Virus record (IMG/VR): IMGVR_UViG_3300044267_001940
Coordinates: 1-25,473 of that record
Length of the DNA: 25,473 bases
Origin: a virus
Taxonomy: Duplodnaviria > Caudoviricetes
Direction: 5' to 3' (one strand)
Shown: positions 10,261-25,473 of the stretch, in pieces
How positions within the stretch are numbered: the stretch's first letter is position 1
Layout: the number at the start of each line of letters is the position of its first letter
Translations under genes and position numbers: made by a program
The notes under the pieces: model-generated
What the model saw: only the letters and a program-made list of their open reading frames with translations
Databases searched by the model: none
What the model was told of the DNA's origin: nothing

Positions 10261-13200
10261 ATGCCAGAAACTAAAAATAACTTTATAAAAGCTAAGATGA
10301 ATCAAGATCTAGATGATAGATTGATTCCTCAAGGTGAATATAGAATAGGTCAAAATGTTACTATAAGTAGATCAGAGGGTGATGGTGTTGGAACATTTCA
10401 AAATATACTAGGTAATAATAGTTTATCAGACTTTGGGTTAACTGGAACTAAGTTAGAAATAATAGGATATTTAGTTGAAGAAATTAACAACATGCTATAT
10501 GTATTTATTACAAACTACAATGATTCTTCTCTAGATCAAATATCTAATAAAGCACCTAGCGATTCTAGTCATTATATATTACAGTATAATTTTACTACTA
10601 ATAGTTCTATAATTTTAGTACAAGGAAATTTTCTTAATTTCTCTAAAACGCACAGAATATATGGTGTTAATTTAATAGAAAATTTATTATTTTTTACAGA
10701 TGATAGAAATCAACCTAGAAAAATTAATGTAGATATTGCAGTTACTAATAGTTCATATTATAATAGTGAAGACAAAGTTTCAGTTGCTAAGTTTTATCCT
10801 TCAAATTCACCACAGTTTTATAAAGAAATAAAATTAAAAGCTACTAATTCGCAAACTGCTCCTGGTGGAACAGCATTAGTTTTGGATGTAAAAAGTACCG
10901 CAGCTGCTGAAGGTCTGTTTGTTGGTATGCCAGTATCTTTAACTCCTCAAGGAGGTACACTAGGTGAAAATATATATTTAACTAATGTGTCTAGTGTAAA
11001 TGGATCTGTAACATTAAGTGCTAATTGTACTTGGACAGCAAATGATGTTATAACATTTTCGCAATATGGTTTGAAAAACTGCGGTAATAAATATTTACCA
11101 CCAATACTTGAGTGTAATTTATCTGTAGTTGTCCAAAGTAGTGGTACTTATACTTTACAAAATGCCAATAGTGCGGCTCCTATATTAGATGGTTGGAACG
11201 CTGTATATAACGACTCTAAGCTTTATGTAGCTAATAGTGGGTCTTCTGCTCCTATAATAACAGAAGACGCAGAATATAAAATAGTAAATTATGCAGGAAG
11301 TGTTATAACAATAAAAGATTCAAATAACGCTGTGCCAGCTAATTTAGATGGAACTACAGTAAAAATATACAGAGAAAACCCAGATTATCAATCAGATTTT
11401 TCTGGGGATGCAGAATTTTTAAAAGATAAGTTTGTTAGATTTTCTTATAGATATAAATTTGATGATAATGAATATTCTTTAATAGCACCTTTTACTCAAA
11501 TAGCATTTACGCCTAAGCAATTTGGTAGTTTTGTTTTAAATGACGAAGAATTAGCTGCAAAAAGTTCTGTTGTAAATTTTTTTGAAAACAATATAGACTG
11601 TATTGATTTATTTATAAGAACCCCTTTTGAAGCTAATAGCGCAACTCCACCTGCTTACCCTACTTGGACAACAGCTTTTAATGATTTAAACATAAAAGAA
11701 GTAGAAATACTATGCAAGTTTGCAAATGAAACAAGTATAAAAGTTATAGATGTTTTAGACCAAACATTTGTAAATAATTTATCAAATAGTGGTAACGATT
11801 CTTACATTAAATACACATATAAATCCACAAAACCTATTAGAGTTTTACCAGAAAAAGATGTAACAAGAGTTTACGACAAAGTACCTATTAGAGCTTTAGC
11901 TCAAGAGGTATCTGGAAATAGGGTAATGTATGGTAACTATATTGACAAACACACTTCACCATTAAGCTTAGAATACAAACTAGCTGTAACAAAAAAAGTA
12001 GATATACCTTTGTCTCAAGATAAAAGAGTATTTAACAACCATACTTTAAAAGAAAATAGAAACTATCAAGTTGGTATAGTTTTATCAGATAGATACGGAA
12101 GGCAATCAGACGTTATATTGTCTAGTATACAAGGTTCTACTGAGGTTTCTGGTGATTCTTATGGAGCATCTACAATATATAATTCGTACTCTAACGCTGC
12201 TTCTTTTGCTGCTGCTGATATTTTAAATTTTACAGGTAAACAAATGCTTTTATATTTAGAAACTGCTATACCAGAAACAATATCACAACCAGGTTATCCA
12301 GGTTTATATAGTGCTAGCAATCCACTTGGGTGGTATACTTACAAAATAGTTGTTAAACAACAACAACAAGAATACTATAATGTTTATATACCTAGTTCTT
12401 ATAGAGAAGATACAGCTAACTACGATTATTTAAATAGTTATTTTTCTTTAGTAAATGATAATATAAATAAAGTTCCTAAAGATTTAGAAAATGTAGGGCC
12501 TGAAGAGAAAGAGTTTAGATCATCTGTAAATTTATTTCCAAGAGTAAATCCTACTACACAAGCGTTTAGTAATACTAATAGTTATTTTATAGAGCCATTA
12601 AGACAAAATGATGATATTAGTTCTATTATATACAACTCTCAACAATCTTTTGACGCTTCTGGCGTATTAATAAGTACAGGCTTAGAAGTAGATGTAACTA
12701 AATTATACAAAGGAAAAACTGCTACAATTGCTAATATTGTTAACAATAAGCTATTTGGTACAACCGACGCCAATAGTAATGTAGCTTCTTTTAATAATGT
12801 AGGTGTATATGAAACAGACCCTTTTGTGTCTAATTTAGATATATTTTATGAAACATCTACATCTGGTTTTATATCAGAATTAAATATATCTATAAATGAT
12901 GACAATTTAGGGCCAGTTTCATTAACAGCTGATACTTTAGATATATTTGAAAATTCTAGGCTATATGAAAAAGGAACAGGAACAGATGAAGAGCCGCAAT
13001 ATGGCCATGTAATATACACTATAGAGTTAAGAGATAAAGATAATATAGCTATACTAAGTACTAGTAACACCTGCACATTAGATACTGTTTTTTCAAGTTT
13101 AAATCCTTCAACGAACATTGCTAGTAAGTTTAAAATAACTAAACAAGTTAGTGGAAATCCAGCTGTAGCTACAGGTAGATTTAATGTTTGGGCTTTAGAT

Positions 13201-14463
13201 TATTTTTATTTTGGAAATGGTCAAAACTTTACGTTTAATATAACAGCTACAGCAAATAGTATAACTAATAGTACTTTAAGTTTTACTGGAGCTTTAAGTA
13301 ATGTTCAACCTCAGTATAACGAAGACACTAACAGCACTTCTACTGCTCCACCTACTACATTACCATACGCAATACCTACTATTGCCGAAAACTATAGAAA
13401 CTATAGTAGACAAACTAATGAAACACCTCCTTTATCTTTGAGACCTACTTATTATAGTGGTGCATTTGCCGGCAATAACACTGCTACTCAAGGTTTAGGT
13501 ACTAGAGGATCTTTACCTTATTTTTATAATACAGGTAGCTATTCTAATATTAGTAGTAAAACTATTGGACCTAACAATTTTATGGAACTAGATGATAGAG
13601 TTATAGGGCCACTACCGGGTGGGGCTACAACTTTTACTTTTGGTAAATTTGATAATTCAGCTGTTAATAATAGCTCATCTAGCACTGATAATTTTAGTAT
13701 ACTTTGGTCAGGTTATGCGGGGACTGGTGGTCCAATTAGTTTTGCAAGAAGCTTTTTATTTGGAGGTCAATCTATATCTAGTGTACCATCAAATTATCCT
13801 ACAGCGTTTCAAAGCAATGTTAATACTGTTATGAACTATTCTTTTAATGGTCCTAGTAGGTGGAGGTCTAGAATAGAGTATGTTCCTAATACTGGCGTGC
13901 AAGAGTCTTGGTCTGTCATGGAAGAAGGAAGAGATGTTTCAAGATTTATTAATATTAATGGTTTTATAGGCGCTATAAATGGCACATTAAATGAATCTCA
14001 AATTCAAAGCGATTTAGTATATTCATTTACTTCAGGATCTTATTTAAAACTACCCACAGCGTATGGCGCTGTAGCAGGCACTCCTGGTGATGGTATAGTA
14101 AGTTCTCCTTTTACAATAAATGGTTATTTTGGAGATGAATCTATTGATGGATCTTACGCGGATATAGACAACGCTTTAAGAGACTGTATATCTTTAACTT
14201 CTACTGGTAAACTAGTTATAAATGATAGCTTGTTATGGAATTATTTTAGTATTGGAGGATCAAAAGGAAATTTAATACCCAACAGTTATAATAACCAATT
14301 GCCTGATGGAACTACTTATAACTATGGATTGTTAATGAACGATAGAGTAGGCAACAATGATACTAACATGTATGGATTATTTTGGGTAGAACTTCCTATA
14401 ACAATAACGGATCAAGGTAATTTAACAACTGATATTATTCATACTATAATAATTTCTTTTTAA
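10261..14463 (+). CDS. Tail stabilisation/nozzle (muzzle) protein, N-terminal part, with inserted and C-terminal variable domains
   Basis: 1400 aa; N-terminal FIKAKMNQDLDDRLIPQGEYRIGQNV, LLFFTDDRNQPRKIN, RFSYRYKFDDNEYS, NRVMYGNY and YQVGIVLSDRYGRQS resemble P22 gp10 / crAss muzzle-like beta-propeller proteins. Confidence 0.65.
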   Translation: MPETKNNFIKAKMNQDLDDRLIPQGEYRIGQNVTISRSEGDGVGTFQNILGNNSLSDFGLTGTKLEIIGYLVEEINNMLYVFITNYNDSSLDQISNKAPSDSSHYILQYNFTTNSSIILVQGNFLNFSKTHRIYGVNLIENLLFFTDDRNQPRKINVDIAVTNSSYYNSEDKVSVAKFYPSNSPQFYKEIKLKATNSQTAPGGTALVLDVKSTAAAEGLFVGMPVSLTPQGGTLGENIYLTNVSSVNGSVTLSANCTWTANDVITFSQYGLKNCGNKYLPPILECNLSVVVQSSGTYTLQNANSAAPILDGWNAVYNDSKLYVANSGSSAPIITEDAEYKIVNYAGSVITIKDSNNAVPANLDGTTVKIYRENPDYQSDFSGDAEFLKDKFVRFSYRYKFDDNEYSLIAPFTQIAFTPKQFGSFVLNDEELAAKSSVVNFFENNIDCIDLFIRTPFEANSATPPAYPTWTTAFNDLNIKEVEILCKFANETSIKVIDVLDQTFVNNLSNSGNDSYIKYTYKSTKPIRVLPEKDVTRVYDKVPIRALAQEVSGNRVMYGNYIDKHTSPLSLEYKLAVTKKVDIPLSQDKRVFNNHTLKENRNYQVGIVLSDRYGRQSDVILSSIQGSTEVSGDSYGASTIYNSYSNAASFAAADILNFTGKQMLLYLETAIPETISQPGYPGLYSASNPLGWYTYKIVVKQQQQEYYNVYIPSSYREDTANYDYLNSYFSLVNDNINKVPKDLENVGPEEKEFRSSVNLFPRVNPTTQAFSNTNSYFIEPLRQNDDISSIIYNSQQSFDASGVLISTGLEVDVTKLYKGKTATIANIVNNKLFGTTDANSNVASFNNVGVYETDPFVSNLDIFYETSTSGFISELNISINDDNLGPVSLTADTLDIFENSRLYEKGTGTDEEPQYGHVIYTIELRDKDNIAILSTSNTCTLDTVFSSLNPSTNIASKFKITKQVSGNPAVATGRFNVWALDYFYFGNGQNFTFNITATANSITNSTLSFTGALSNVQPQYNEDTNSTSTAPPTTLPYAIPTIAENYRNYSRQTNETPPLSLRPTYYSGAFAGNNTATQGLGTRGSLPYFYNTGSYSNISSKTIGPNNFMELDDRVIGPLPGGATTFTFGKFDNSAVNNSSSSTDNFSILWSGYAGTGGPISFARSFLFGGQSISSVPSNYPTAFQSNVNTVMNYSFNGPSRWRSRIEYVPNTGVQESWSVMEEGRDVSRFININGFIGAINGTLNESQIQSDLVYSFTSGSYLKLPTAYGAVAGTPGDGIVSSPFTINGYFGDESIDGSYADIDNALRDCISLTSTGKLVINDSLLWNYFSIGGSKGNLIPNSYNNQLPDGTTYNYGLLMNDRVGNNDTNMYGLFWVELPITITDQGNLTTDIIHTIIISF

Positions 14464-14464
14464 T

Positions 14465-16213
14465 ATGGCAGCAAGAGTACCAATAAGTTATTACAATTCG
14501 TTTTGGATGAAAAGAACAGGGTCTATAATAGGAGCTAGCGCAGCTACTGGCTATAAACCTGTTTGGCCTGGTATATTTTGGTCACCTTATAATACTGGTG
14601 TTTTTCCAATAAATGCTAATACACTCTCTACAGAAATACAAGATCGTAACTGGTTTGTTGAAGAAGCTAGAATAAAAGGTGGATTTAATAATACTAGTGT
14701 TGATTTTGGAGTAAAAGCATATGTAAATGAAGATAATCCTGTACAGTTAAATAGATCAAATGCTATAATATATTCAGGTGTTTTTAATTCTAGAACTGGT
14801 TTTAATGAAACAAATGTGTTTTCAGTTGGAGAAACTATAAGTACCGCTTTAGATCCTAGTCATGGTTCTATACAAAGATTATATGCGTTAGATAATAACT
14901 TAACTATATTTCAAGAAAATAAAGTAAGTAAATCTTTAATAGATAAAGATGCTATATACTCTGCAGAAGGAGGTCAAACTCCAGTAAGCTCTTTAACTCA
15001 AGTGATAGGTCAAAACGTGCCTTATTTAGGCAACTATGGCATAAGTAAAAATCCAGAAAGTTTTGCTACATTTGGTTTCAGAAGATACTTTGCTGATAAG
15101 TATAGAGGTAAAGTTATGAGATTATCAAGAGATGGATTAAGTGAAATATCTGCAGTAGGTATGGAAGATTTTTTTAGAGATCAATCTGAATTAATAGAAG
15201 ATAATTTTAAAAGGTATAATGTAGTAACATCTAGTGGTACAGCACCTGGCTCTACTACAACTGTTGTTGTTACAGCAGCTAATATAGCAAATTTAGAATA
15301 TGGTATGACAGCTTCTATAGCTGGTTTAATTACTCAAGCTTTTATAACAGGTTTAAATACAACTACGAATACAGTTACATTATCTGAATCTGTTACAATA
15401 CCTACTTCAAATCCTCAAAAAACAGAAATAACTTTTTTTAAATTTGTTAAAGATACTATAGAAGGTGCTTGGGATGTTAGAGACAGGCAGTACACATTAT
15501 CTTACCAACAAGCCCCAACTGATATTGCTTTTACTGAAGAGTTTACATTTTTAAACGAGCCTTTAGCTATAAAAAATACTTCAACATTGTCTTTTGACGA
15601 GTCTATAAAAGGCTGGACTAGTTATTATACTTATAGACCTAATATTATTTTTAGTTCTAAAAACAACTTTTACTCGTTTAAAGACGCTAAAATATGGAAA
15701 CATTATGAAGAAACTGTGATTAATAATAGAGGAGTTTTTTATAACGTAGCTAATCCTTCTAGTGTAACTTTTGTTATTAACTCAAATCCTTCAATTAAAA
15801 AAGTTTTTCAAACTATTAACTATGAAGGCGATAGCGGCTTTCAGATAAATCACTTTAGATCTGACTTTCAAAGAGTCGATCCTGATGTGCCATTAACTTC
15901 TCCGCCATCTTATGTTAATAGTAATCAGTATCAAGATACAACACCTATTGTATATAGTTATGATCAAGGTTTGTATACTGACACTATAACTGGTCAACCT
16001 AAAAGAGCAGGTTTTAATAGAAAAGAAAACCTATATGTAGCTAACTTAATAAACAACAGTGTTGTTAGGCCAGAAGAAATAATATTTGGTAATGAAATAT
16101 CTGGTATAAAAGGATATTTTGCTACTGTAAAAATATCAACAGATAATTACACTAACGTAGGTGGTTTAAAAGAACTATGGAGTGTAGGTTCTAAATTTGT
16201 ACAATCATCTTAA
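14465..16213 (+). CDS. Tail stabilisation/nozzle protein, C-terminal part
   Basis: 582 aa; HGSIQRL, YGISKNPESFA, YFADKYRGKVMRLSRDGLSEIS, TLSFDESIKGWTSYY and KVFQTINYEG resemble the C-terminal half of that family. Confidence 0.65.
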   Translation: MAARVPISYYNSFWMKRTGSIIGASAATGYKPVWPGIFWSPYNTGVFPINANTLSTEIQDRNWFVEEARIKGGFNNTSVDFGVKAYVNEDNPVQLNRSNAIIYSGVFNSRTGFNETNVFSVGETISTALDPSHGSIQRLYALDNNLTIFQENKVSKSLIDKDAIYSAEGGQTPVSSLTQVIGQNVPYLGNYGISKNPESFATFGFRRYFADKYRGKVMRLSRDGLSEISAVGMEDFFRDQSELIEDNFKRYNVVTSSGTAPGSTTTVVVTAANIANLEYGMTASIAGLITQAFITGLNTTTNTVTLSESVTIPTSNPQKTEITFFKFVKDTIEGAWDVRDRQYTLSYQQAPTDIAFTEEFTFLNEPLAIKNTSTLSFDESIKGWTSYYTYRPNIIFSSKNNFYSFKDAKIWKHYEETVINNRGVFYNVANPSSVTFVINSNPSIKKVFQTINYEGDSGFQINHFRSDFQRVDPDVPLTSPPSYVNSNQYQDTTPIVYSYDQGLYTDTITGQPKRAGFNRKENLYVANLINNSVVRPEEIIFGNEISGIKGYFATVKISTDNYTNVGGLKELWSVGSKFVQSS

Positions 16214-16222
16214 AAATAAATT

Positions 16223-16918
16223 ATGCCAATACCTTTAATAATTCCTATACTAGCTGGTGTAGGTGCAGCAACTCAAATAACTAGTGGTATTATAGCAACA
16301 AGCAAAGCTAATAAAGCTAAGAATGACGCTAAAACTTTAGCTGATAATATAACTAAATTAGAAAACAATAGAACACCTATTATAAATCCTTATGAAGGAG
16401 CCGAAGATTTATCAAGTTCATTATCTAACCCTTATGCTAATTTAGGTGTAGCTACTCAAGCTGCTCAAATAGAAGCCGAAGAAGCAGATTTATCTTTAGC
16501 TAATACCTTAGACACTGTAAGAGCTGGGGGTTTTGGAGCTGGTGGTGCTACTGCTTTAGCTCAAGCTGCTGCTAGAAGTAAAAGAGGTATTGCAGCTGAT
16601 ATACAGAAACAAGAAGCTAATAATGAGCAATTAAAAGCACAAGGCGAACAAAATCTACAACAACAAATAATGAGTGAAAAAATAAGGATGCAAAATTTAG
16701 ATGCCGCTGGAAAACAGTTTGTATTCCAACAACAAGATGCTAGAGACATGCAGCAGCTAGATAGGGCTCAAGCGTTGTATGACAATCAACTAGCCCAACA
16801 AATGCAATACCAAGCTGATGCAACCGCTGCTTTTGCTGGTGCTGCTGGTAGCTTAACAAGCTTTGCTACAGGTACAGATTTTAGTGGTGGATTTTCTGAC
16901 TCACTTTTTAAATCATAA
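16223..16918 (+). CDS. Internal virion / ejection protein 1 (putative)
   Basis: 231 aa; hydrophobic Gly/Ala N-terminus (PLIIPILAGVGAATQITSGII), GGFGAGGATALAQAA, Gln-rich coiled coil. Confidence 0.6.
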   Translation: MPIPLIIPILAGVGAATQITSGIIATSKANKAKNDAKTLADNITKLENNRTPIINPYEGAEDLSSSLSNPYANLGVATQAAQIEAEEADLSLANTLDTVRAGGFGAGGATALAQAAARSKRGIAADIQKQEANNEQLKAQGEQNLQQQIMSEKIRMQNLDAAGKQFVFQQQDARDMQQLDRAQALYDNQLAQQMQYQADATAAFAGAAGSLTSFATGTDFSGGFSDSLFKS

Positions 16919-16921
16919 ACT

Positions 16922-18808
16922 ATGGGATCATATACACAACCAAGTCGAATATTAGACAAATCGCACTCAGTATTAAATGATGCTTTGGGTAAGATACAAA
17001 CTGATATAGCTACTAACTTAAAAAATAATAGAACTAGAGCTATAGAAGAACAAAAACTTTTAGAAAAGCAAAGAATAGAAAAACAAAAAGCTGATGTTAA
17101 AAGAGCAAAAGACAAAAGAACTTTAGAAAAACAACAAAGAAAAGCTGGTTTAAACGTGGTTCACTCAGTAAAAAATACTATGGTGGGTGAAGAAGAAGGC
17201 TATGCTAATGTTAGAGTAGGTGATGAAGTTATAAAAGTAAAAAAATCAAATGTAGATAAAGCTAGAGAACTTAGACAAAAAGCTTTAAAAGGCGAAGACA
17301 CTACTAAAGAGCTAGTTAAATTACAAGAAGAAACTAGCTTTGATGTAATGAGTGATTTAGACGAGCTAGATGATGACGACTTTGGAGGTATACAGTTTGG
17401 TATTGAAGAAGATTTAAAATATTTATATGGTGAATTAGCTAAATATGATCCTAATAGTGTTGAATACGAAACAGTATACGGAAACATAGAGCAAATATTA
17501 GATGAAGCACCTGTCTTAGTTGATTTAGTTAATAAAACTGTAGAAAGCAATAAAGGCGCTTGGAATTTAAATGGCGAATTACTTAATCCAGAAAGAGGCA
17601 TAAGTGGTATAGCATTGGATGACGGAGCTCCTGAATTTGATTTAAGATTAGAAGCTAGCAAACACATTATATTTGGAACTAAGCAAGGTAGGTTTAGTTT
17701 TGAATCTGTAGGTAATAAACAACCTGGGTTTAAAGGATCTTCTTATATATTGTATACTGCGGAAAACGGGAAACAACTTAAAATAGGTTATAACGAATAT
17801 AAAGAGCTTGTTGAAAATGGCGGCGGACTAATAGGCAGTACTGATGCTGATCCTTACGATAAAGGTATTAAGAAAATATGGGATCAAAATAAAAATGCTT
17901 ATAGTCAATTAAAAACTAAATCTACAAATAGTCTTACCAATGTGCAAGGTGATAGGAAAGTTACAGTTAGAACTATCGTACAAGATTTTGATAATGCTAA
18001 TGCTAATTTAGAAAAATCAATTACTGATTTTGTATATAACGGAGGTATGAATAATGTTGAAGGTAAAATACCTGGTTATAATTATGCTCAAAACTTTTGG
18101 CAAATGGCTGGTGGACCAGATGGATCAGAAGAAATGCGTAGATGGAGTAATACTAAAGAGCAAAAAGAAAGACTATCAAAGCTATTAATAGACGATGTGA
18201 AAAGAAAATATGCTTCTGAGACTAGTAGAACTACTTATGTTAATGACAGAGACGCAGGTGAAGCAAATGTTGATATTGTAAGCGATATAGTAAATAATAA
18301 TTCTATATTAGTTAATGAAGATATATCTAATAAATACTTTAAAGGTAAAAGTAAAATTGGAAATAATGAGCAAGCTAATTATGGTTATCAAGATATTTAC
18401 GATAATTACAATACTCTCTCTGATCAAGGATTTAGAGGTGCTGCAGAAGTACTTACTGATATTAGCGCAAAAAACGAAAGAACTCCTAGAAAATGGAAGG
18501 GCGGAACAGTTTTACAGCAAGAGCTTATAAAGTCTAAAGGTTATAAAATAGAAGACGAAGATGGTAATGCTTTACAAGATGTAGATCCTACTAAACTCTA
18601 TGTAGAAACTGCAGGTGGCTATCAAGAATTAGACATAGACAGCTTTGAAGACTTAATGAATCAAGTTAGGCCAGCAGCTGGAATAACTCCTACTAATCAT
18701 AAAAAAGCTATGGGCAAAGTAAATATGGATGTTAAATTAAAAGATACAGCTCAAGAAACTAATACAAATAAATTTAATCCAATAGAAACAGCAAATCAAT
18801 TATCATAA
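16922..18808 (+). CDS. Internal virion / ejection protein 2 (putative)
   Basis: 628 aa; charged N-terminal coiled coil; lies between the small ejection gene and the giant gene. Confidence 0.5.
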   Translation: MGSYTQPSRILDKSHSVLNDALGKIQTDIATNLKNNRTRAIEEQKLLEKQRIEKQKADVKRAKDKRTLEKQQRKAGLNVVHSVKNTMVGEEEGYANVRVGDEVIKVKKSNVDKARELRQKALKGEDTTKELVKLQEETSFDVMSDLDELDDDDFGGIQFGIEEDLKYLYGELAKYDPNSVEYETVYGNIEQILDEAPVLVDLVNKTVESNKGAWNLNGELLNPERGISGIALDDGAPEFDLRLEASKHIIFGTKQGRFSFESVGNKQPGFKGSSYILYTAENGKQLKIGYNEYKELVENGGGLIGSTDADPYDKGIKKIWDQNKNAYSQLKTKSTNSLTNVQGDRKVTVRTIVQDFDNANANLEKSITDFVYNGGMNNVEGKIPGYNYAQNFWQMAGGPDGSEEMRRWSNTKEQKERLSKLLIDDVKRKYASETSRTTYVNDRDAGEANVDIVSDIVNNNSILVNEDISNKYFKGKSKIGNNEQANYGYQDIYDNYNTLSDQGFRGAAEVLTDISAKNERTPRKWKGGTVLQQELIKSKGYKIEDEDGNALQDVDPTKLYVETAGGYQELDIDSFEDLMNQVRPAAGITPTNHKKAMGKVNMDVKLKDTAQETNTNKFNPIETANQLS

Positions 18809-18809
18809 T

Positions 18810-21800
18810 ATGAATTATAGATTTAACGGAACAGACTATACTGAAGATGAAATGACTCAAGTAGCTGATGTAAAAGGCTATACTTTAGAAGAATTAATTT
18901 CTAAAAATCCTAAAATAGAAACTATAACAGACGAAGAGGAAGATGAAGGAGTTAAAGTGGAAAAGCCGACACCTGTCGAGAGTGCCCCGACTGCGACAGA
19001 GATAAAAGGCAATGGGGTTTCCAAGCCGGAAAATACTTCATCGGTATTAGAAGAGAATAAAAAAGTTGAACCTATCAAAGTAGAAGAAAAGCCTAAAATT
19101 GAAAATGTAATATATCCTGAAGCAGATAATACAAAGGACATGAAAAAAGCTTTTAAAGACGAATATGGCGTTAAATATGAGAATATTCAAAAAGCTGTAG
19201 ATAGAGATGTATTAAAAGCAGAGCAAAATTTTCAAGCTGAATTAGATAAGTATTTTGTAGATGGTATTGATAAATATAAAAAAGTAAGTGAAGATGGTAC
19301 AGAATTATTAAATCTAAATGCTTTAGAACAAGACGCATATAATAAAGCTGTCACTAAATATAAAAATAATATAGATGCTATTAACAAAAAATATAGCAAA
19401 GAACGTTTAAATGATTATGTAAAGAGATATAACTCTTTTTTAGATGATGAATCTAAAAAACAAATAGACCAACTTTTAATAGATCAAGAAAAGTCTAAGC
19501 AAGATCTTATAGATTTTGAAGATAAAATATATTACAGATATGACAAAAGTGGTAAGCTGCTAGGAATACATAATTATGCTAGTATATATGATACGTACGT
19601 TGCGCCTGATAGACTTTCTTATGAAGAGTATGTAAAAATACCAGGAAACGAAAACAAGACAAAAAAAGAGTATAAAAATACATCTTACGCATTGCCTAAA
19701 TATGACAGCGTAGAAGATTACTTAGAGGATTACAACAAACATGGTAAAAGATCTGGATATATGCAAGAGGCTTCTACTAGTACTTTGTTAGACGAGTTTG
19801 AAATAGTAGTTCCTTCTAAAGAAACAGATACTGATAAACGTTTAGATTACTGGAAAAAGACTTTTTCTGGTCCTACAGAAGCTATATTTAACGATTTTGA
19901 TGATAATACTGTAGCTAGAATATTAAATAATTTATTACCAAAAAGTTTTGATGTTAATGCTTATGATCCTTTGCAAAATAGAATAGCAGTAACTAATACT
20001 AAAAATGACGAAGTAGAATACTTTGATGTTTTTGCTGATGGAAATAAAGCTAAAGCTAGATCTGAATCTATGCGACTAGCTAGTTGGTTAGCTGCTAATA
20101 CTATAAACGAAGAAGTAAAATTAACTGAAGATAATAAAAAATCACTTGACGATTACTTAACTAGCTTACAATCTAAACCTGCATACGATAACGAGGGTAA
20201 TCTTACTGGTGATGGTTTAAATGTAGATAATTTAAAAATACCTAAAACAAATAATTATTCTATAGGTCAAGTATCAGATTTAGAAAACTTTAGTGTAGAT
20301 TTATTTAAATTTGCTAATAAAACTACTCCAGCTTATATAGATGTACAGCCAGGTAGAAGATTTAGTTACGATGTTGCTGAAGATAATTTAGATGACTCTA
20401 GATATAGAAAGTCTCAACAAGCAGCTTTTAATACTTTTATACAAACACCAGGTTCAGACGGTAAATCTATAGGAATATCAGGCAAGATAAATTATTCTAC
20501 AATGCCTACTTACGAGCAAGATATACAAAGAGGAGGATTTGGCAGAAGTGATAAAAAACTAGATACCTATACTGAAATACCTAGCACATATGTCGGTGGT
20601 GAAATGGCTAGTCAAAAAGACAAAGACATAATAGAATACTCTAAACAAAACAAAGAAGCTTTATTTTATTATAATAAATCTAACGGTGAGAAAGTTTTAT
20701 TTGATACTAAAAAATGGAGTCAAGAAAATAACGGTAAAAACTTTACAGAATTTATAAGTAGAAAAGCTGTAAATGATGTATTAGTACCAGAAGAGTTAGT
20801 TGAAGAAGAAAAAATAGTTTTTGAAAAAGCTATTGGCATGGACTTTTTAGGAGACGCTGATTTAAACAAACAAGCTAAAATAATATTAGCTAGTTTAAAT
20901 GTTAAGCAAGATATTAAGAATAATATAACTTCTAATAAGTATGTTCAGAAAAAACTTGAAAATAAAATTCAAAACTTTAAAGGTTATAGTGTAGAAACTA
21001 CTCAAGCTATTTTAAATATTCCAGGTTATGAAGTAAAAATAAGACCTGGTGAAGATCTAGTAGAAGTGCCAACTAATTATGGTGAAAAAGTTATAGCTCC
21101 TAAAAGAATATTTGATAATGCTAAAGCAGAAATAACAGAGTTTACTGCTACTACTGAATTATATAAAAAAAATAACGCGTCTCAACTTAAGTTAATAGAT
21201 GACGCAGATAACGCTAATGATAAGTGGGAAATATACAAGTTAAATTATAGCGACACTGAAGCTAATCTGCAGAACTTTGTTTTATCTACTGCAGATTTTA
21301 TAAGTTCATCTCTCTATGGTGGTTATAAATACTTAACGCCCTACGGTTGGGCTATGAGTGCTTTGTCTGCTGGTGCTAACGTAAAAGATCCTTTAACAGA
21401 AGTTATGCTAGGATTTAAAGAGTATCAAGAAAAGCAAAGGTCTTATTATGTTGCTCCACCTAAATTTGGTGAGTTTAGAACAGCTGCTGATTTTGGTAGT
21501 TGGTTTTTCAATATGGCAGGAACACAGATACCTCAATATGCTACAATGTTATTTAGTGGAGGTAGCGCAAGTATACCATTGTTAATAATGGGTTCTTCAG
21601 CTGCAGGGTCTACTGACTTAGACTTTAGAAGAGAAGTTATAGCAGGTAATAAAGATTATAATGAGTTTGGTATATTGTGGAGATCCGCTTTATCAGGAGG
21701 ATCTGAAGCTTTATTTGCCGGTTTACCTACGTGGAAAATAATGAACAAAGGTAAAAGTTTAGTGTCTGGTTTAGGTGGCAATGCTACGTCACAGTTTTTC

Positions 21801-24800
21801 AAAGGTGGTAGAGATTATTTAAGAGCACAAGTACCTGGCATAATAAAAGATGTAACTTTAGATTCAGGATTTGAAGTTATTAATGGTGTTGTACAAAATG
21901 TTTTAGCTGAAAGACCTTTGACAGAAGGATTAGGAGAAATAGCAGCTACTAGTATACTAATGACTGGTCCTGTGTCTGTTCTTTCTCCAACTTATTATGC
22001 TTTGACTACTAAAGATTTTATTGGTGGAAATATAAAACAAAGAATAAATGAGAATACTTATAAGATAAGTGAAATAGAAAATCAAAATAAAATTTATTCT
22101 AAAAGTATACAAAAATTCATGGATGCTGCTACTAGATTAGCAGGCACTAGCGATGGTAGATATGCAAGACAAAAAGTACAAGAGTTAAAAACTAAATTAT
22201 TAGAAAATCTAAATATAAAAATGGAGTTGCAAACAGAAGTAACATCTGACTACAACTCTTTAGATAACACATTTAAAAATAAAGGTGTTAACCCTGCTGG
22301 ATCTGCGAATTATAATTTTATGCTAAGTAAATTGATTGAATTAAAAAATCAAGCTAAGCAAGTAAATCAAAATAATAATTTAACAGATAGCCAAAAGTCA
22401 AAACAACTTGATGATATTAATGCTCAATACGTTAGAATAGATCAAGCCAAAGAAAAGTATTTAGATCCTAAGACATATGGTGATGCTTGGCACGCGCTTA
22501 AAGGAGCTGGAGTTTTTAATTTTGCAGCTAAAAAACAGTATAAAGAATATGTAAATAAAGCTACTGAAAATCTACTTGAGTCTGGAGTAACTAATGAAAA
22601 CTTAACTACAGAAAAAGTAGAACAAGAAGCTAGAAAATTATATCACGAAAAAATAGCAGAAGATCAAATAGTTAAGGATCAAAAAGTAAACCCAAATTTA
22701 AGAGTCGCAAGAACACTTGAAGAAGCTAAAGATATAATAAACAAAAGCACTACATTAGGCGAAGAACAAAAGAAAAACTTAATAAGCAAGCTTGAAAAAG
22801 GAACTCAAAACGGATTCAGTATAGATGAATTTGAGTTTGCTTATACGCCTAACATGGTTAAAAATAGTATGTTTCATACAGGAGGTCATGAAACATCTCA
22901 TAGATCTTCTTCAATTTTAATTAGTAAAAATCCACAAGCTTTTAAAGGTTTTGCAGATCAATTAGTTTCTTTTATGGAAGCTGACCATGCTGAACTTTTA
23001 GAGTATGCTAAACAAGTAAATGGTAATTTATTTAAAGACGGTAAGTACGACTCTGAAGAAGTAATAGCTACGTTTATAGAATTAGTAGGAGCTGGTAAAA
23101 TAAAAATGAATAAGAACGGTAATATGCCTGCATTATTAGGGTTTTTATTTAATAAAAGCCTAAATAATGCTAGTGAAGGAGAGTATAACATACCTTTTAA
23201 TGGTCAAGATGATATTGTAAACTGGTTTATTGGTCTTGGAAAAGGTTTGACTGACGGCAGCGTGACAATAGGTCAATATACAGAATTATTAGCCGGTGCT
23301 TTAGACATAGATTTAGAAACTGGCAAAGTAGTTAAAATGACGCCTGAACAAACTTCTAAATTAGCGGCTAGTGAAGTAGAGATAAGTGATTCTGAAACTA
23401 CACTGTTAGATGCTATAAATAATTTATTACCTAAAGACATAGATACTAAAGAAAAGTATGATGACTTCATAAGAGATGAGAGAAAAGCTAAACCAATTGT
23501 AGACGCGTTAAATAAACCAGGTGGTGCTATAAATAACTATATAAGATCTAAACAAGTTAGTCCAGAAGAGGGTAACGAAATGATACAAAATACATTGTTT
23601 AGATTATTTAATTTTAATCCTGAAGAAACTAGAGCAGATGGCAGTGTTGTAGGTCCTGAAAGTTTTGGCGAAAGAATATTTGCTGATACTAGATTTGCTT
23701 CATTAGATGCTAGAAAAAAGTTAGCTAAAGAAGCAGAAAAGAAAAAGCAAGAGGCTAGAATTGACGATGAAGAAGCTAGACAAGTAGCTGCTCGTGACGA
23801 TTCTGAACCTACTGAAACAGCTAAAGATAGAGTTACTCCTAAATCTAAGATACCAAAAGAGTTTCCAGAAGTATTTGATCAAGACATTAAAGATGAATTT
23901 GAAACAGCTGGATTAGAAATATATGAAAGTGATCTTCCAGATATGTCTAAAAAAGAATTTAAAGCTGCTGTTCTTGATATTTTTAAAGGTAAATTAGGTA
24001 AAAAAGTAAAAGACAAGTTAGGTACTCGTAAAAATTACGAGTTTGTAGTCAAAAAAATGGCTCCTAAAATGAAAGATCTTTTACCTGTACAGTGGTTTGT
24101 TAGATTAGAAGCTCAAACAAAACCTGAAGATAGACTTTTTACTAATCCTCCAAAGCGTCTAACTAAGAAAGCAGATATAGATAAAGCTTTGTTAGATGAA
24201 AAAGTTTACGTAGAAAACTTAAAACAAGGAGTTAATATTTATGAATTTAAAGACTTTAAAGCTAAACAATTATCAGATTATTTATTAGCACCAGCTATAA
24301 ATCCTATCACTGGAGAAAAAAGTGGTCTTAGAGGTACTAGAAAAACTGCTTTAGTTGAAGGTATAACAGAAAAATTAGGTAGAGATGTTTCACCTTCTAC
24401 AGCTAAAGCTTCTGGTAGAACAACTAGAGAGATAGCTGAAATAAGTAAAAAGCTACAAGTAGATCCTAGAATTAAGTTTAGTGCTAGTTATATAAGCAAT
24501 TTTTTAAAAGAAATTAATGTAGATTATTTAAGAGGTTACAATAGTAAAGGTGATGTGAATAAAAAAGATGTTAAAAGATTTAAAGAAGTATTATTAAAGT
24601 TCTATCCTTTTAGTACTTCAACTATAAACTCTGGAACTTTTGCTAATATAAGTAGTGGAAAAGCAAAAGGTCAAAATTTTAATGATATTGATAGGTTAAG
24701 TATGCAATTGCTTTTAAATTTTGGCGAACAAGGAGACGTAGACAATATATATATACCTACTAAAAACGCTGAAGAAATATCTATTATTTCTAAAAAGTAT

Positions 24801-25473
24801 AATGGAGAAGTAGATGGTGCTGTAGTTAAAATAAATATAAATAAATTAAACAAAGACCAGCTTCAAGAATTATTAAAAAAATATTTAAAAAGATCTACTA
24901 AAGAGTTTTCGCTAAGTGAAGACAAGATGAATAGTGTTGCTGACACTTTTAAATCTTTAAGTTCTGCTTGGTTAAATTTAAATAAAAATATTAAAAACTT
25001 TCACAATGATTCTAAATATATAAAAGAAAGAAAAAGTAATTATGATGGTTTAGGTTTTATAATAGAAGAGTTTGACAGAGTGTATACTGAAGCTAAAGGA
25101 GAGGATAAGAAGCTAGTGTTACAAATGCTAGCTGGTATATTCTCCACGGCAAGTGCCAATAGCTCTCACATGTTTAGAATGGCTGCGTTTCCTAGTGGTT
25201 ATACTTCTACTTATTTAGATGGATCTGGAACTAGAAAAGAGCACGTAATACCTCAAGCAGATTTAGCAGATTTTGTGTTTACTGTTATATCTGATCCTTC
25301 TTTAAATACTAATTTAGCTATAGAATTAATAAAAGATAATTTTTTACAACTATATATAAGTGAAAATCAAGATAATATGCTTAAAGATCCTGGTTTTCAA
25401 AGTAAAATGCCTGAAGGTTATTGGGAGAGCTGGTACGATGCTATAAGAACTGGCGATTTATCTAAAGCTTTCC
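18810..25473 (+). CDS. Giant internal virion / ejection polyvalent protein, >2221 aa, 3'-truncated
   Basis: ATG at 18810 (TAA-T-ATG junction). Read codon by codon with no stop to the window end (MNYRFNGTDYTEDEMTQVADVKG...). Gly/Ala hydrophobic region about 21270-22010, HETSH at 22887-22901, EHVIP at 25239-25253. Confidence 0.88.
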   Translation, partial: MNYRFNGTDYTEDEMTQVADVKGYTLEELISKNPKIETITDEEEDEGVKVEKPTPVESAPTATEIKGNGVSKPENTSSVLEENKKVEPIKVEEKPKIENVIYPEADNTKDMKKAFKDEYGVKYENIQKAVDRDVLKAEQNFQAELDKYFVDGIDKYKKVSEDGTELLNLNALEQDAYNKAVTKYKNNIDAINKKYSKERLNDYVKRYNSFLDDESKKQIDQLLIDQEKSKQDLIDFEDKIYYRYDKSGKLLGIHNYASIYDTYVAPDRLSYEEYVKIPGNENKTKKEYKNTSYALPKYDSVEDYLEDYNKHGKRSGYMQEASTSTLLDEFEIVVPSKETDTDKRLDYWKKTFSGPTEAIFNDFDDNTVARILNNLLPKSFDVNAYDPLQNRIAVTNTKNDEVEYFDVFADGNKAKARSESMRLASWLAANTINEEVKLTEDNKKSLDDYLTSLQSKPAYDNEGNLTGDGLNVDNLKIPKTNNYSIGQVSDLENFSVDLFKFANKTTPAYIDVQPGRRFSYDVAEDNLDDSRYRKSQQAAFNTFIQTPGSDGKSIGISGKINYSTMPTYEQDIQRGGFGRSDKKLDTYTEIPSTYVGGEMASQKDKDIIEYSKQNKEALFYYNKSNGEKVLFDTKKWSQENNGKNFTEFISRKAVNDVLVPEELVEEEKIVFEKAIGMDFLGDADLNKQAKIILASLNVKQDIKNNITSNKYVQKKLENKIQNFKGYSVETTQAILNIPGYEVKIRPGEDLVEVPTNYGEKVIAPKRIFDNAKAEITEFTATTELYKKNNASQLKLIDDADNANDKWEIYKLNYSDTEANLQNFVLSTADFISSSLYGGYKYLTPYGWAMSALSAGANVKDPLTEVMLGFKEYQEKQRSYYVAPPKFGEFRTAADFGSWFFNMAGTQIPQYATMLFSGGSASIPLLIMGSSAAGSTDLDFRREVIAGNKDYNEFGILWRSALSGGSEALFAGLPTWKIMNKGKSLVSGLGGNATSQFFKGGRDYLRAQVPGIIKDVTLDSGFEVINGVVQNVLAERPLTEGLGEIAATSILMTGPVSVLSPTYYALTTKDFIGGNIKQRINENTYKISEIENQNKIYSKSIQKFMDAATRLAGTSDGRYARQKVQELKTKLLENLNIKMELQTEVTSDYNSLDNTFKNKGVNPAGSANYNFMLSKLIELKNQAKQVNQNNNLTDSQKSKQLDDINAQYVRIDQAKEKYLDPKTYGDAWHALKGAGVFNFAAKKQYKEYVNKATENLLESGVTNENLTTEKVEQEARKLYHEKIAEDQIVKDQKVNPNLRVARTLEEAKDIINKSTTLGEEQKKNLISKLEKGTQNGFSIDEFEFAYTPNMVKNSMFHTGGHETSHRSSSILISKNPQAFKGFADQLVSFMEADHAELLEYAKQVNGNLFKDGKYDSEEVIATFIELVGAGKIKMNKNGNMPALLGFLFNKSLNNASEGEYNIPFNGQDDIVNWFIGLGKGLTDGSVTIGQYTELLAGALDIDLETGKVVKMTPEQTSKLAASEVEISDSETTLLDAINNLLPKDIDTKEKYDDFIRDERKAKPIVDALNKPGGAINNYIRSKQVSPEEGNEMIQNTLFRLFNFNPEETRADGSVVGPESFGERIFADTRFASLDARKKLAKEAEKKKQEARIDDEEARQVAARDDSEPTETAKDRVTPKSKIPKEFPEVFDQDIKDEFETAGLEIYESDLPDMSKKEFKAAVLDIFKGKLGKKVKDKLGTRKNYEFVVKKMAPKMKDLLPVQWFVRLEAQTKPEDRLFTNPPKRLTKKADIDKALLDEKVYVENLKQGVNIYEFKDFKAKQLSDYLLAPAINPITGEKSGLRGTRKTALVEGITEKLGRDVSPSTAKASGRTTREIAEISKKLQVDPRIKFSASYISNFLKEINVDYLRGYNSKGDVNKKDVKRFKEVLLKFYPFSTSTINSGTFANISSGKAKGQNFNDIDRLSMQLLLNFGEQGDVDNIYIPTKNAEEISIISKKYNGEVDGAVVKININKLNKDQLQELLKKYLKRSTKEFSLSEDKMNSVADTFKSLSSAWLNLNKNIKNFHNDSKYIKERKSNYDGLGFIIEEFDRVYTEAKGEDKKLVLQMLAGIFSTASANSSHMFRMAAFPSGYTSTYLDGSGTRKEHVIPQADLADFVFTVISDPSLNTNLAIELIKDNFLQLYISENQDNMLKDPGFQSKMPEGYWESWYDAIRTGDLSKAF
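18959..19018 (+). other. Putative programmed -1 ribosomal frameshift signal (slippery site plus H-type pseudoknot)
   Basis: G_GAA_AAG at 18959-18965; 7-nt spacer; stem 1 CTGTCG(18973-78)/CGACAG(18994-99); stem 2 GCCCC(18984-88)/GGGGT(19014-18); A-rich connecting loop. Confidence 0.6.

Follow-up and report, generated by a model that had tools for sequence, protein, structure and literature searches.

The question raised by the 5' end of the giant gene (18810..25472, plus strand, as are all features described here unless noted) in the window, i.e. the whole 25,473-nucleotide (nt) contig IMGVR_UViG_3300044267_001940 of an uncultured marine phage (Caudoviricetes), is whether this gene, which comprises 2,221+ codons and runs off the contig, gives rise to one protein or to two. 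An earlier note on this DNA had suggested that at about codon 52, at an abrupt GC-rich island, ribosomes shift into the -1 frame ahead of a pseudoknot, leading to an 83-residue product with a tail rich in Cys and aromatic residues. In the window and its relatives the recoding signals are present and conserved, the -1 frame is under selection, frame 0 is open and the tail has no start codon of its own. Judged from these sequences, productive -1 ribosomal frameshifting at A_AAG, stimulated by a pseudoknot, is very probably what occurs here, and we would assign to it a probability of nearly nine in ten.

The slippery site in the window, G_GAA_AAG, occupies positions 18959..18965, its core tetramer A_AAG being located at 18962-65 and AAG forming the Lys codon 52 of the open reading frame (ORF) starting at 18810. 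It is followed by a spacer of 7 nt (18966..18972) and by a predicted H-type pseudoknot (18973..19018), for which the evidence consists of its stacking score and of covariation in the family. In the first stem (S1) of this structure CTGTCG (18973-78) pairs with CGACAG (18994-99), extendable by 2 base pairs over a bulge, and in the second stem (S2) GCCCCG (18984-89) pairs with TGGGGT (19013-18) across a 13-nt A-rich loop (19000-12). The -1 frame is closed by a TAA just 5' of the slip site (18953..18955), from which point it is open and free of ATG, GTG and TTG codons, and the 32-codon tail (P0121, KADT...IRRE; 18962..19060), with three Cys residues and an aromatic motif at 19013-19048, ends at the TAA at 19058-60. 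The predicted transframe product is thus 83 residues long, and its N-terminal part (18810..18962), a domain of about 40 residues followed by an acidic linker, is common to both predicted products. The elements listed in the earlier note, inclusive of the opening of the -1 frame at this TAA without a start codon, lie base for base where it had placed them. The GC-rich island is equally real, as 18970-19029 is the most GC-rich 60-nt segment of the contig (0.583 versus a mean of 0.317), and of the unusual frame-0 codons remarked upon past the structure, CCG occurs 3 times in the 2,221-codon giant gene, each time within codons 52-84. Further, a GGAG sequence is present at 18948-51 upstream of the site, and no indel was seen at the slip site in contigs from four sequencing runs.

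For the pseudoknots we used our own score, viz. a sum of stacking energies over the stems of an H-type structure starting 4-8 nt past the tetramer. The site of interest, at -25.0 kcal/mol, has the best score of all 872 in-frame Z_ZZN sites (A/T tetramers) in the 13 plus-strand genes of the window. Scores at least as good came from 7 of 1000 dinucleotide shuffles and from 31 of 1000 shuffles in which the -1 peptide is preserved.

Relatives of the giant gene were fetched through gene A (16223..16918; 231 amino acids), an anchor independent of the feature, so that the 186 loci obtained were chosen without reference to it; 58 of them with less than 600 nt of the giant gene or no anchor ORF were left out, and of the 128 loci (window included) reaching 600 nt into this gene 112 were non-redundant. 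In all 112 the giant gene begins within 49 nt of the stop codon of gene B (16922..18808 in the window; 628 amino acids, stopping 1 nt ahead of the giant gene), and thus frame 0 is open throughout. A loosely defined aromatic motif, whose pattern was written after the data were seen, is present in the -1 frame within the first 160 codons of 76 of the 112 genes, versus 2 occurrences in 123,546 downstream -1 codons and none in either 141,507 +1 codons or the 55,143 codons of gene B, which served as a negative control. In a test requiring no motif, -1 stretches of 35+ open codons were seen in the first block of 81 of the 112 genes, compared with 43 of 977 blocks further along and 9 of 112 blocks taken from gene B. 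By a wider rule 88 genes were positive, and 85 were left after removal of L013, L099 and L102, in which inspection by eye showed no tail (L102 looks degenerate); the tail segments of L026, L055 and L149 were reassigned by hand. Two further genes (L022 and L045), recognised later, have the site and pseudoknot with Cys-free tails, and with these the cassette is present in 87 of 112. The motif proposed earlier for the -1 frame is indeed conserved, in the form Y/W/F-G-I/F-x-x-G-x-Y/W-F-x-G, and it is under protein-type selection, as described below. A Trp-rich subclass of tails was also observed, in which F-x-F-W-x-W-x-I replaces YGIxxGxYFFG while the A_AAG site (mostly as GTA_AAG) and the pseudoknot are the same; the loci concerned (L010, L031, L033, L050, L085, L098, L140, L145, L157 and L158, within the first 100 codons) cluster on the gene-A tree.

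A Z_ZZN tetramer is present in 84 of the 85 tail-bearing genes (A_AAG in 59, T_TTT in 12, A_AAA in 10 and others in 3). The heptamers containing it are varied, the commonest being A_GTA_AAG (21), G_GGA_AAG (18), which is the heptamer used by lambda, G_GAA_AAG (8) and G_GAT_TTT (8). Perfect X_XXY_YYZ heptamers occur at 30 of the 84 sites, and the window's own heptamer is not among them, as the earlier note had recognised. Of its expectation that GGAAAAG or GGGAAAG would be conserved in homologs, the part that stands is that a slip site is kept at the same spacing; the invariant element, however, is the tetramer A_AAG or T_TTT rather than a particular heptamer. The shiftiness of A_AAG is governed by the tRNA-Lys content of the host. 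The ranking of tetramers in the family agrees with the order measured in E. coli with an IS3 pseudoknot, viz. A_AAG >> U_UUC > U_UUU (PMC4066793). The spacer is 5-7 nt long in 73 of the 84 relatives (range searched 4-8). Pseudoknots scoring -20 or better follow 73 of the 84 sites, in comparison to 15 of 780 control A_AAG sites and 71 of 1,778 best-of-block controls. In a MAFFT alignment of the 84 sequences, built from sequence alone, the consensus pseudoknot is paired in 85.0% of cells versus 71.9% in shuffled and 27-52% in slid controls, and it contains 182 double changes versus 61. Compensatory changes were seen in all 16 pairs (10 in S1 and 6 in S2), the main helices being 83-88% paired, so that both of the stems covary in the manner that had been suggested. 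Since the register of S2 in the window is shifted from the family consensus (GGATGC/GCATCC), the assignment of S2 in the window rests on its own score and not on the aligned columns.

Within the open -1 segment a start codon (ATG, GTG or TTG) occurs in only 2 of 84 genes, late in the segment in both cases, and in 48 of 84 the nearest upstream -1 stop lies 1-5 codons ahead of the chosen site. The predicted short products are 67-125 residues long, of which 28-53 residues are new, i.e. from the -1 frame. It could be supposed instead that the tail belongs to an independent gene, sense or antisense, overlapping the giant gene behind the GC island, as an 87-residue antisense ORF (18878-19141) spans the site and a profile search of 1.84 billion proteins led to 24 called ORFs carrying the tail, mostly in frame behind an N-domain, as the C-terminus of ORFs of 58-127 residues. 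However, no start codon precedes the motif, either in the above genes or in 27 of 27 further motif-bearing loci (among 43 fetched with two of the in-frame fusions), in all of which the tail is in the -1 frame; thus, the IMG/VR relatives of these two fusions do not share their arrangement. All 10 of the in-frame ORFs checked are singleton clusters, and this result together with the 27 loci indicates that most in-frame fusions are probably indels, although a few in-frame short genes may be genuine. Of the three antisense frames none is open in more than 48 of the 84 genes (48, 47 and 4), due to which an antisense gene was rejected, and an overlapping gene of either orientation is hardly credible. 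In three of the called ORFs (P0126, P0136 and P0142) the N-domain and tail are joined in one frame without the first stem-encoded residues, and these are possibly genuine stand-alone short genes. A word-indexed search for the tail within longer proteins gave none.

If the tail is made as protein, then changes within it should gather at the wobble position of the -1 frame. In 61 gap-free tails the entropy is 1.25 bits at the -1 wobble versus 0.72 and 0.56 at the other two positions, and of the single-base codon differences 64% are synonymous in the -1 frame and 17% in frame 0; this test is partly circular because the rows were picked by the motif. In a less circular test, 36 disjoint nearest pairs were aligned as DNA; 3' of the pseudoknot their differences amount to 0.336 at the wobble position of the -1 frame, compared with 0.211 at that of frame 0, the value at the normal third codon position of gene A being 0.445. 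The Ile preceding Gly is never encoded by ATA (0 of 32), a codon which would create a TAG stop in frame 0. In near-identical populations the change 19039 C>T leaves the -1 peptide unaltered and is Ser>Leu in frame 0, while 19032 A>G is Lys>Arg; among the variants listed, none falls at a stem position. The location of the substitutions at the -1 wobble indicates that the tail is selected as a protein. The alternative that there is no frameshift, and that the -1 peptide is only the shadow of an acidic Ser-rich linker in frame 0 or of an RNA element with another job, has in its favour a recurring frame-0 pattern (S/L-E-D-x-S-S/L-E/D) and the presence of Cys codons inside the stems, from whose pairing part of the -1 pattern could come. 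However, the variation in frame 0 is of the type S/L and E/D/V/G/A, i.e. at codon position 2, which is the -1 wobble, and this holds also 3' of the pseudoknot; additionally, the tetramer and the 5-7-nt spacer recur with several different heptamers. The Cys codons within the stems alternate between TGT and TGC but tend not to undergo compensatory flips, a hint that Cys itself is under selection in the pseudoknot class. We regard this alternative as largely refuted and very improbable.

Several observations weigh against productive frameshifting and should be considered together. The counts of covariation are inflated by the relatedness of the sequences, and plain minimum-energy folding, a method which cannot draw pseudoknots, is unremarkable at the site in the window (z -0.55 to -1.42, plus strand). 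The window heptamer G_GAA_AAG permits only imperfect re-pairing in the P site, and a Shine-Dalgarno (SD)-like sequence lies upstream of 12 of the 84 sites versus 69 of 780 controls, i.e. without enrichment; an SD stimulator of the dnaX or IS911 type was accordingly rejected. A related contig in the RNA run X20 has 45 differences in 573 nt and constitutes no evidence of expression. Lastly, 25 of the 112 giant genes are without an intact cassette, and these are scattered on the gene-A tree, requiring at least 4 forced changes. The loss of the cassette indicates that the short product is helpful rather than universal, and the scatter that it is dispensable or replaceable in some lineages. A search of Rfam found nothing near gathering score at the site.

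The same tail is also found behind a different device. In the annotated relatives no pseudoknot is present at the site and a run of A residues, which is absent from the window, occurs instead. In phi38:1, Calle_1 and elemoF (A10) and in MW202828 (A11) the giant is in frame and the basic aromatic tail is in the -1 frame, whereas phi19:3, phi18:3, phi46:3, phi13:2 and Panino have A9; no second run of this kind (9 or more A) occurs in any of the nine annotated regions fetched (10-41 kb). A held-out set was obtained with a different virion gene as anchor (80 loci, of which 27 have gene A and 10 reach the giant gene), and in it A10 is present in 9 of the 10 giant genes; the strict motif is matched by only 2 of the 10, and one locus (L256) has YGIxFGRWFFGF directly behind the run. 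A total of 899 kb contains 16 runs of 10 or more A, and inspection by eye placed 14 of these where the giant gene begins. Folding behind the A run in the nine annotated genomes and 8 held-out genes is for the most part at the level of shuffled sequences (z -2.7 to +0.6, mostly near 0), which favours polymerase slippage, and bacterial RNA polymerase slips on nine A's (PMC5009743). These sequence patterns favour the view that the tail in the poly(A) class is made by transcriptional slippage on the A run. The persistence of the tail behind A10, where no structure is found, further argues against its being the shadow of a linker or RNA element. A quick gene-A tree places the cassette-less rows together with the pseudoknot class on one side (support 97) and the poly(A) class outside; this tree is limited by sampling and long branches, and no order of events is claimed from it.

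In the A9 genomes the frame of the ATG stops early, and the giant is annotated either as two genes or, in Panino, as starting downstream at a GTG. A separate N-terminal gene of 87-103 residues is thus present in phi19:3 (L190:11056-11376), phi18:3 (L191:10310-10633), phi46:3 (L192:10619-10939) and phi13:2 (L195:10119-10394), and in Panino (L187:27354-27536) the A9 run leaves the giant one base out of frame, as in these four phages. One extra A in the five A9 genomes would give the pattern of the A10 group, and the simplest reading of these sequences would be a homopolymer miscall at A9, the alternative being that recoding is needed to make the giant. In IMG/VR the A9 Baltivirus site is found in 4 records only, each equal in length to one of the four isolate genomes. 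Between phi13:2 and phi19:3 (L195 and L190) the sequences are near-identical past the A run, whereas the N-terminal domains ahead of it are unrelated, and this contrast indicates that the N-domain was swapped at the recoding site.

Regarding the short product itself, the N-domain of the window was modelled (AlphaFold2, alignment of 21 sequences) as a beta-hairpin, two helices and a strand of about 40 residues with a mean predicted local distance difference test (pLDDT) value of 83, and it is predicted to fold on its own; a fold search of BFVD with this domain gave no match at E<=0.001. The type of N-domain differs among relatives, other lineages using unrelated ones. An N-terminal motif of the type IVQRMIDAGEPEENI was also observed at the head of ORFs in phage contigs without the tail motif (L293-L308, L312, around 1501-1600), and from its sequence context the IVQRMIDAGEPEENI-type motif looks like a mobile N-terminal module of virion-delivered proteins. 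The tail is modelled, at low confidence, as a beta-hairpin (residues 17-22 and 25-30), with alternating hydrophobicity in its first strand, and G19 and G28 are invariant in 54 tails. The mean charge across the family is -6.5 for the N-terminal part and +5.9 for the tail, and tails differing in sequence (YGIxxGxYFFG, FxFWxW and GIGWFRW) are alike in charge and in alternating hydrophobicity. Searches with the tail gave no match in Pfam or PHROG, one match (E 0.74) for its profile among PDB sequences, and values below 0.9 in the ESM Atlas. As to the CxxCxxC and aromatic tail described in the earlier note, the aromatic hairpin has held up as the core, whereas CxxCxxC is the window's version of CCxxGCxC and is confined to the pseudoknot class; the Cys cluster is absent in L022, L045, L292, L303 and L310 as well as in the poly(A) class, and its absence from these is what points to the aromatic hairpin as the core.

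Based on the above, we propose that a ribosome with AAG (Lys-52) in its A site would stall at the pseudoknot 7 nt downstream, whereupon tRNA-Lys would re-pair to AAA, mostly by single-tRNA slippage, because GTA or GCA occupies the P site in many relatives. The shifted ribosome would read 31 new codons and stop, giving the 83-residue isoform at a set ratio of short to giant protein, and in the poly(A)-class relatives the same tail would be reached through RNA polymerase adding an A on the A10 run. The tail may then act as a cationic amphipathic beta-hairpin tethering the common N-domain to the membrane, which is the least certain step, and the tethered short isoform could assist in recruiting the giant protein, or in positioning it, while the head is loaded or during ejection, with the Cys cluster serving as a lineage-specific metal or disulfide brace co-encoded in the stems of the pseudoknot. 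This membrane role is offered as a tentative and somewhat doubtful model, and two points count against it, viz. that the hairpin model is of low confidence (mean pLDDT 60, predicted template modelling score 0.22) and that the net charge of the tail in the window is only +2. Taken more broadly, Bacteroidota podophages of several families may possess an unannotated fourth protein of the ejection module, a mini-isoform of the giant with a membrane-binding beta-hairpin cap, kept through swaps of the N-domain and a change of device between polymerase slippage on A10 and pseudoknot frameshifting; we consider this plausible, though its chances are somewhat below even.

The features of the short product are also relevant to two other interpretations in which the recoding is genuine. 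Aromatic clusters act as Lon degrons, and recoding could serve mainly to throttle synthesis of the giant, the aromatic tail being a protease tag by which the by-product is cleared. The position of the shift about 50 codons in, where diversion is cheap, the tight length of the products (67-125 residues), the unrelated N-domains among lineages and the lack of the cassette in 25 of 112 genes would suit this; however, a stop immediately after the shift would suffice for throttling, and the fixed spacing of Gly residues and the TGT/TGC wobble of the Cys codons look like a fold and not like a generic tag, making this interpretation unlikely. Alternatively, the short product could be an assembly adaptor resembling lambda gpG/gpGT, without any membrane role, in which the N-domain binds the giant and the hairpin adds a strand to the portal or to the product of gene A or gene B. 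A tail that stays conserved while the N-domains are exchanged suits binding to a conserved partner, and the making of fixed-ratio products from one gene is a known use of frameshifting in phages (PMC5009743). However, at least 3 sequence classes of the tail are hard to fit to one interface, and the adaptor is rather improbable, albeit hardly less probable than the membrane tether.

The genes surrounding the site belong to a virion module, as window genes match the PHROG families for terminase, portal, capsid-type and further structural proteins. The nearest annotated relatives of the module are Maribacter phage Panino, Elemovirus, Callevirus (Pervagoviridae) and Baltivirus/Bacelvirus (Pachyviridae), and seawater metagenome runs contain DNA near-identical to the window, 12 of these runs being possible sources of it. 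The gene order is the same as in Pachyviridae, Pervagoviridae and Elemovirus, where the syntenic gene is annotated as structural; the syntenic giant genes of the Cellulophaga phages are annotated as virion structural, that of phi18:3 (gp123) from tandem mass spectrometry. Gene A aligns with virion structural proteins of cultured phages and has 6,691 relatives among 8,000 scored candidates; a tblastn search with it matched no cultured phage, and a single Panino query against IMG/VR matched no relative. The final three genes (231, 628 and 2,221+ amino acids) occupy the position of the podovirus ejection (internal virion) genes, and it is on this gene order that the earlier description of the giant as an ejection gene rests; the giant protein of the window matches no family in PHROG or Pfam, tape-measure and tail-chaperone families of PHROG included. 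In the ESM Atlas it led to unnamed clusters only, with weak LPD-domain neighbours (0.78-0.79). A DxDGD-type polymerase motif was looked for in the giant and not found, and a virion RNA polymerase motif was accordingly rejected. Lineage-specific domains are inserted in other giants, viz. a tRNA-methyltransferase-like PHROG in Panino (L187:27536-33025) and DUF3293 in elemoF (L188:25720-36804), and these are consistent with polyvalent virion-delivered proteins. Elsewhere in the module, phrog_14478, a single virion protein of about 1,470 residues in some cultured phages, corresponds to two window genes of 1,400 and 582 residues (10261-16213); recoding at their junction was rejected, as it consists of a plain stop and an ATG one base apart with no slip site seen.

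If these interpretations are correct, then in a large group of marine phages a giant virion-type protein is shortened and provided with a selected tail that gene callers miss, and after dnaX this would be the second clear case of ribosomal frameshifting and transcriptional slippage substituting for each other, the reason here being a conserved peptide. The family also supplies about 70 natural examples of bacterial pseudoknot stimulators that show covariation, and the cultured relatives phi38:1, Calle_1, elemo and Panino make the system testable. Either a homopolymer miscall or real recoding is also suggested for Panino and for the four Baltivirus/Bacelvirus genomes in which the giant is annotated in split form.

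In the IS3 family the frameshift extends OrfA into the transposase, and CopA(Z) is the copper-binding N-domain itself, its -1 frame ending almost at once. The phage frameshifts described in the main texts consulted mostly extend tail-chaperone, capsid or tail proteins, and neither in these texts (including PMC5009743, PMC8776804, PMC10386132, PMC10885494, PMC10172136, PMC8008677 and PMC9548414) nor in a literature collection with few subscription papers was a report of such a frameshift in this gene context found; the mechanism is already known and the gene context is apparently new. With T7/T3 gene 10 and other C-terminal extensions of capsid and tail proteins (PMC5009743, in part) the present case shares a frameshift in a virion gene of a short-tailed phage, but there the full-length structural protein is extended, whereas here a mini-isoform is predicted. 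It likewise resembles lambda gpG/gpGT (PMC5009743 and PMC10885494, in part) in involving a phage morphogenesis gene with two products having a common N-terminus and a set ratio. However, in lambda a short ORF is lengthened by a shift at its end, while here the shift is located at the start of a giant ORF (codon 52 of 2,221+), which it shortens, in a podovirus-type module with no tape-measure context. The IS3-family -1 frameshift (PMC4066793) has the same A_AAG/U_UUY tetramers, the same rank order and a pseudoknot 5-8 nt downstream; correspondingly, in the window and its family there are a shifty in-frame Z_ZZN, a predicted structure 5-8 nt downstream and covariation in both stems, the differences being that a long virion-type gene is here cut short by the shift and its product given a short selected tail, and that upstream SD sequences are not enriched. 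E. coli copA (PMC5009743 and PMC9548414, in part) provides the likeness in layout, viz. a -1 shift near the 5' end of a long gene which releases an N-domain as a product of about 70 residues beside the full-length protein. However, in our case conservation lies in the 28-53 new residues while the N-domain is variable, and the metal-binding (HMA) P-type ATPase of copA has no counterpart here, neither the giant nor the tail having a Pfam match. For dnaX, whose tau and gamma products depend on a ribosomal shift in E. coli versus slippage on a 9-base run in Thermus thermophilus (PMC5009743, in part), the likeness is that the same truncated product is made through ribosomal frameshifting in one lineage and apparently through polymerase slippage in another, and the poly(A) class has, as in T. 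thermophilus, a conserved run of A9 or more with no need of a 3' structure. It differs in that gamma ends about a codon past the shift, whereas here the shifted frame encodes a conserved tail, and in that slippage on A10 is deduced from the lack of downstream structure. The system is therefore not a member of the lambda G/GT kind but would work as an IS3-type tetramer-pseudoknot shift, in the layout of copA/CopA(Z) and with a device swap of the dnaX type.

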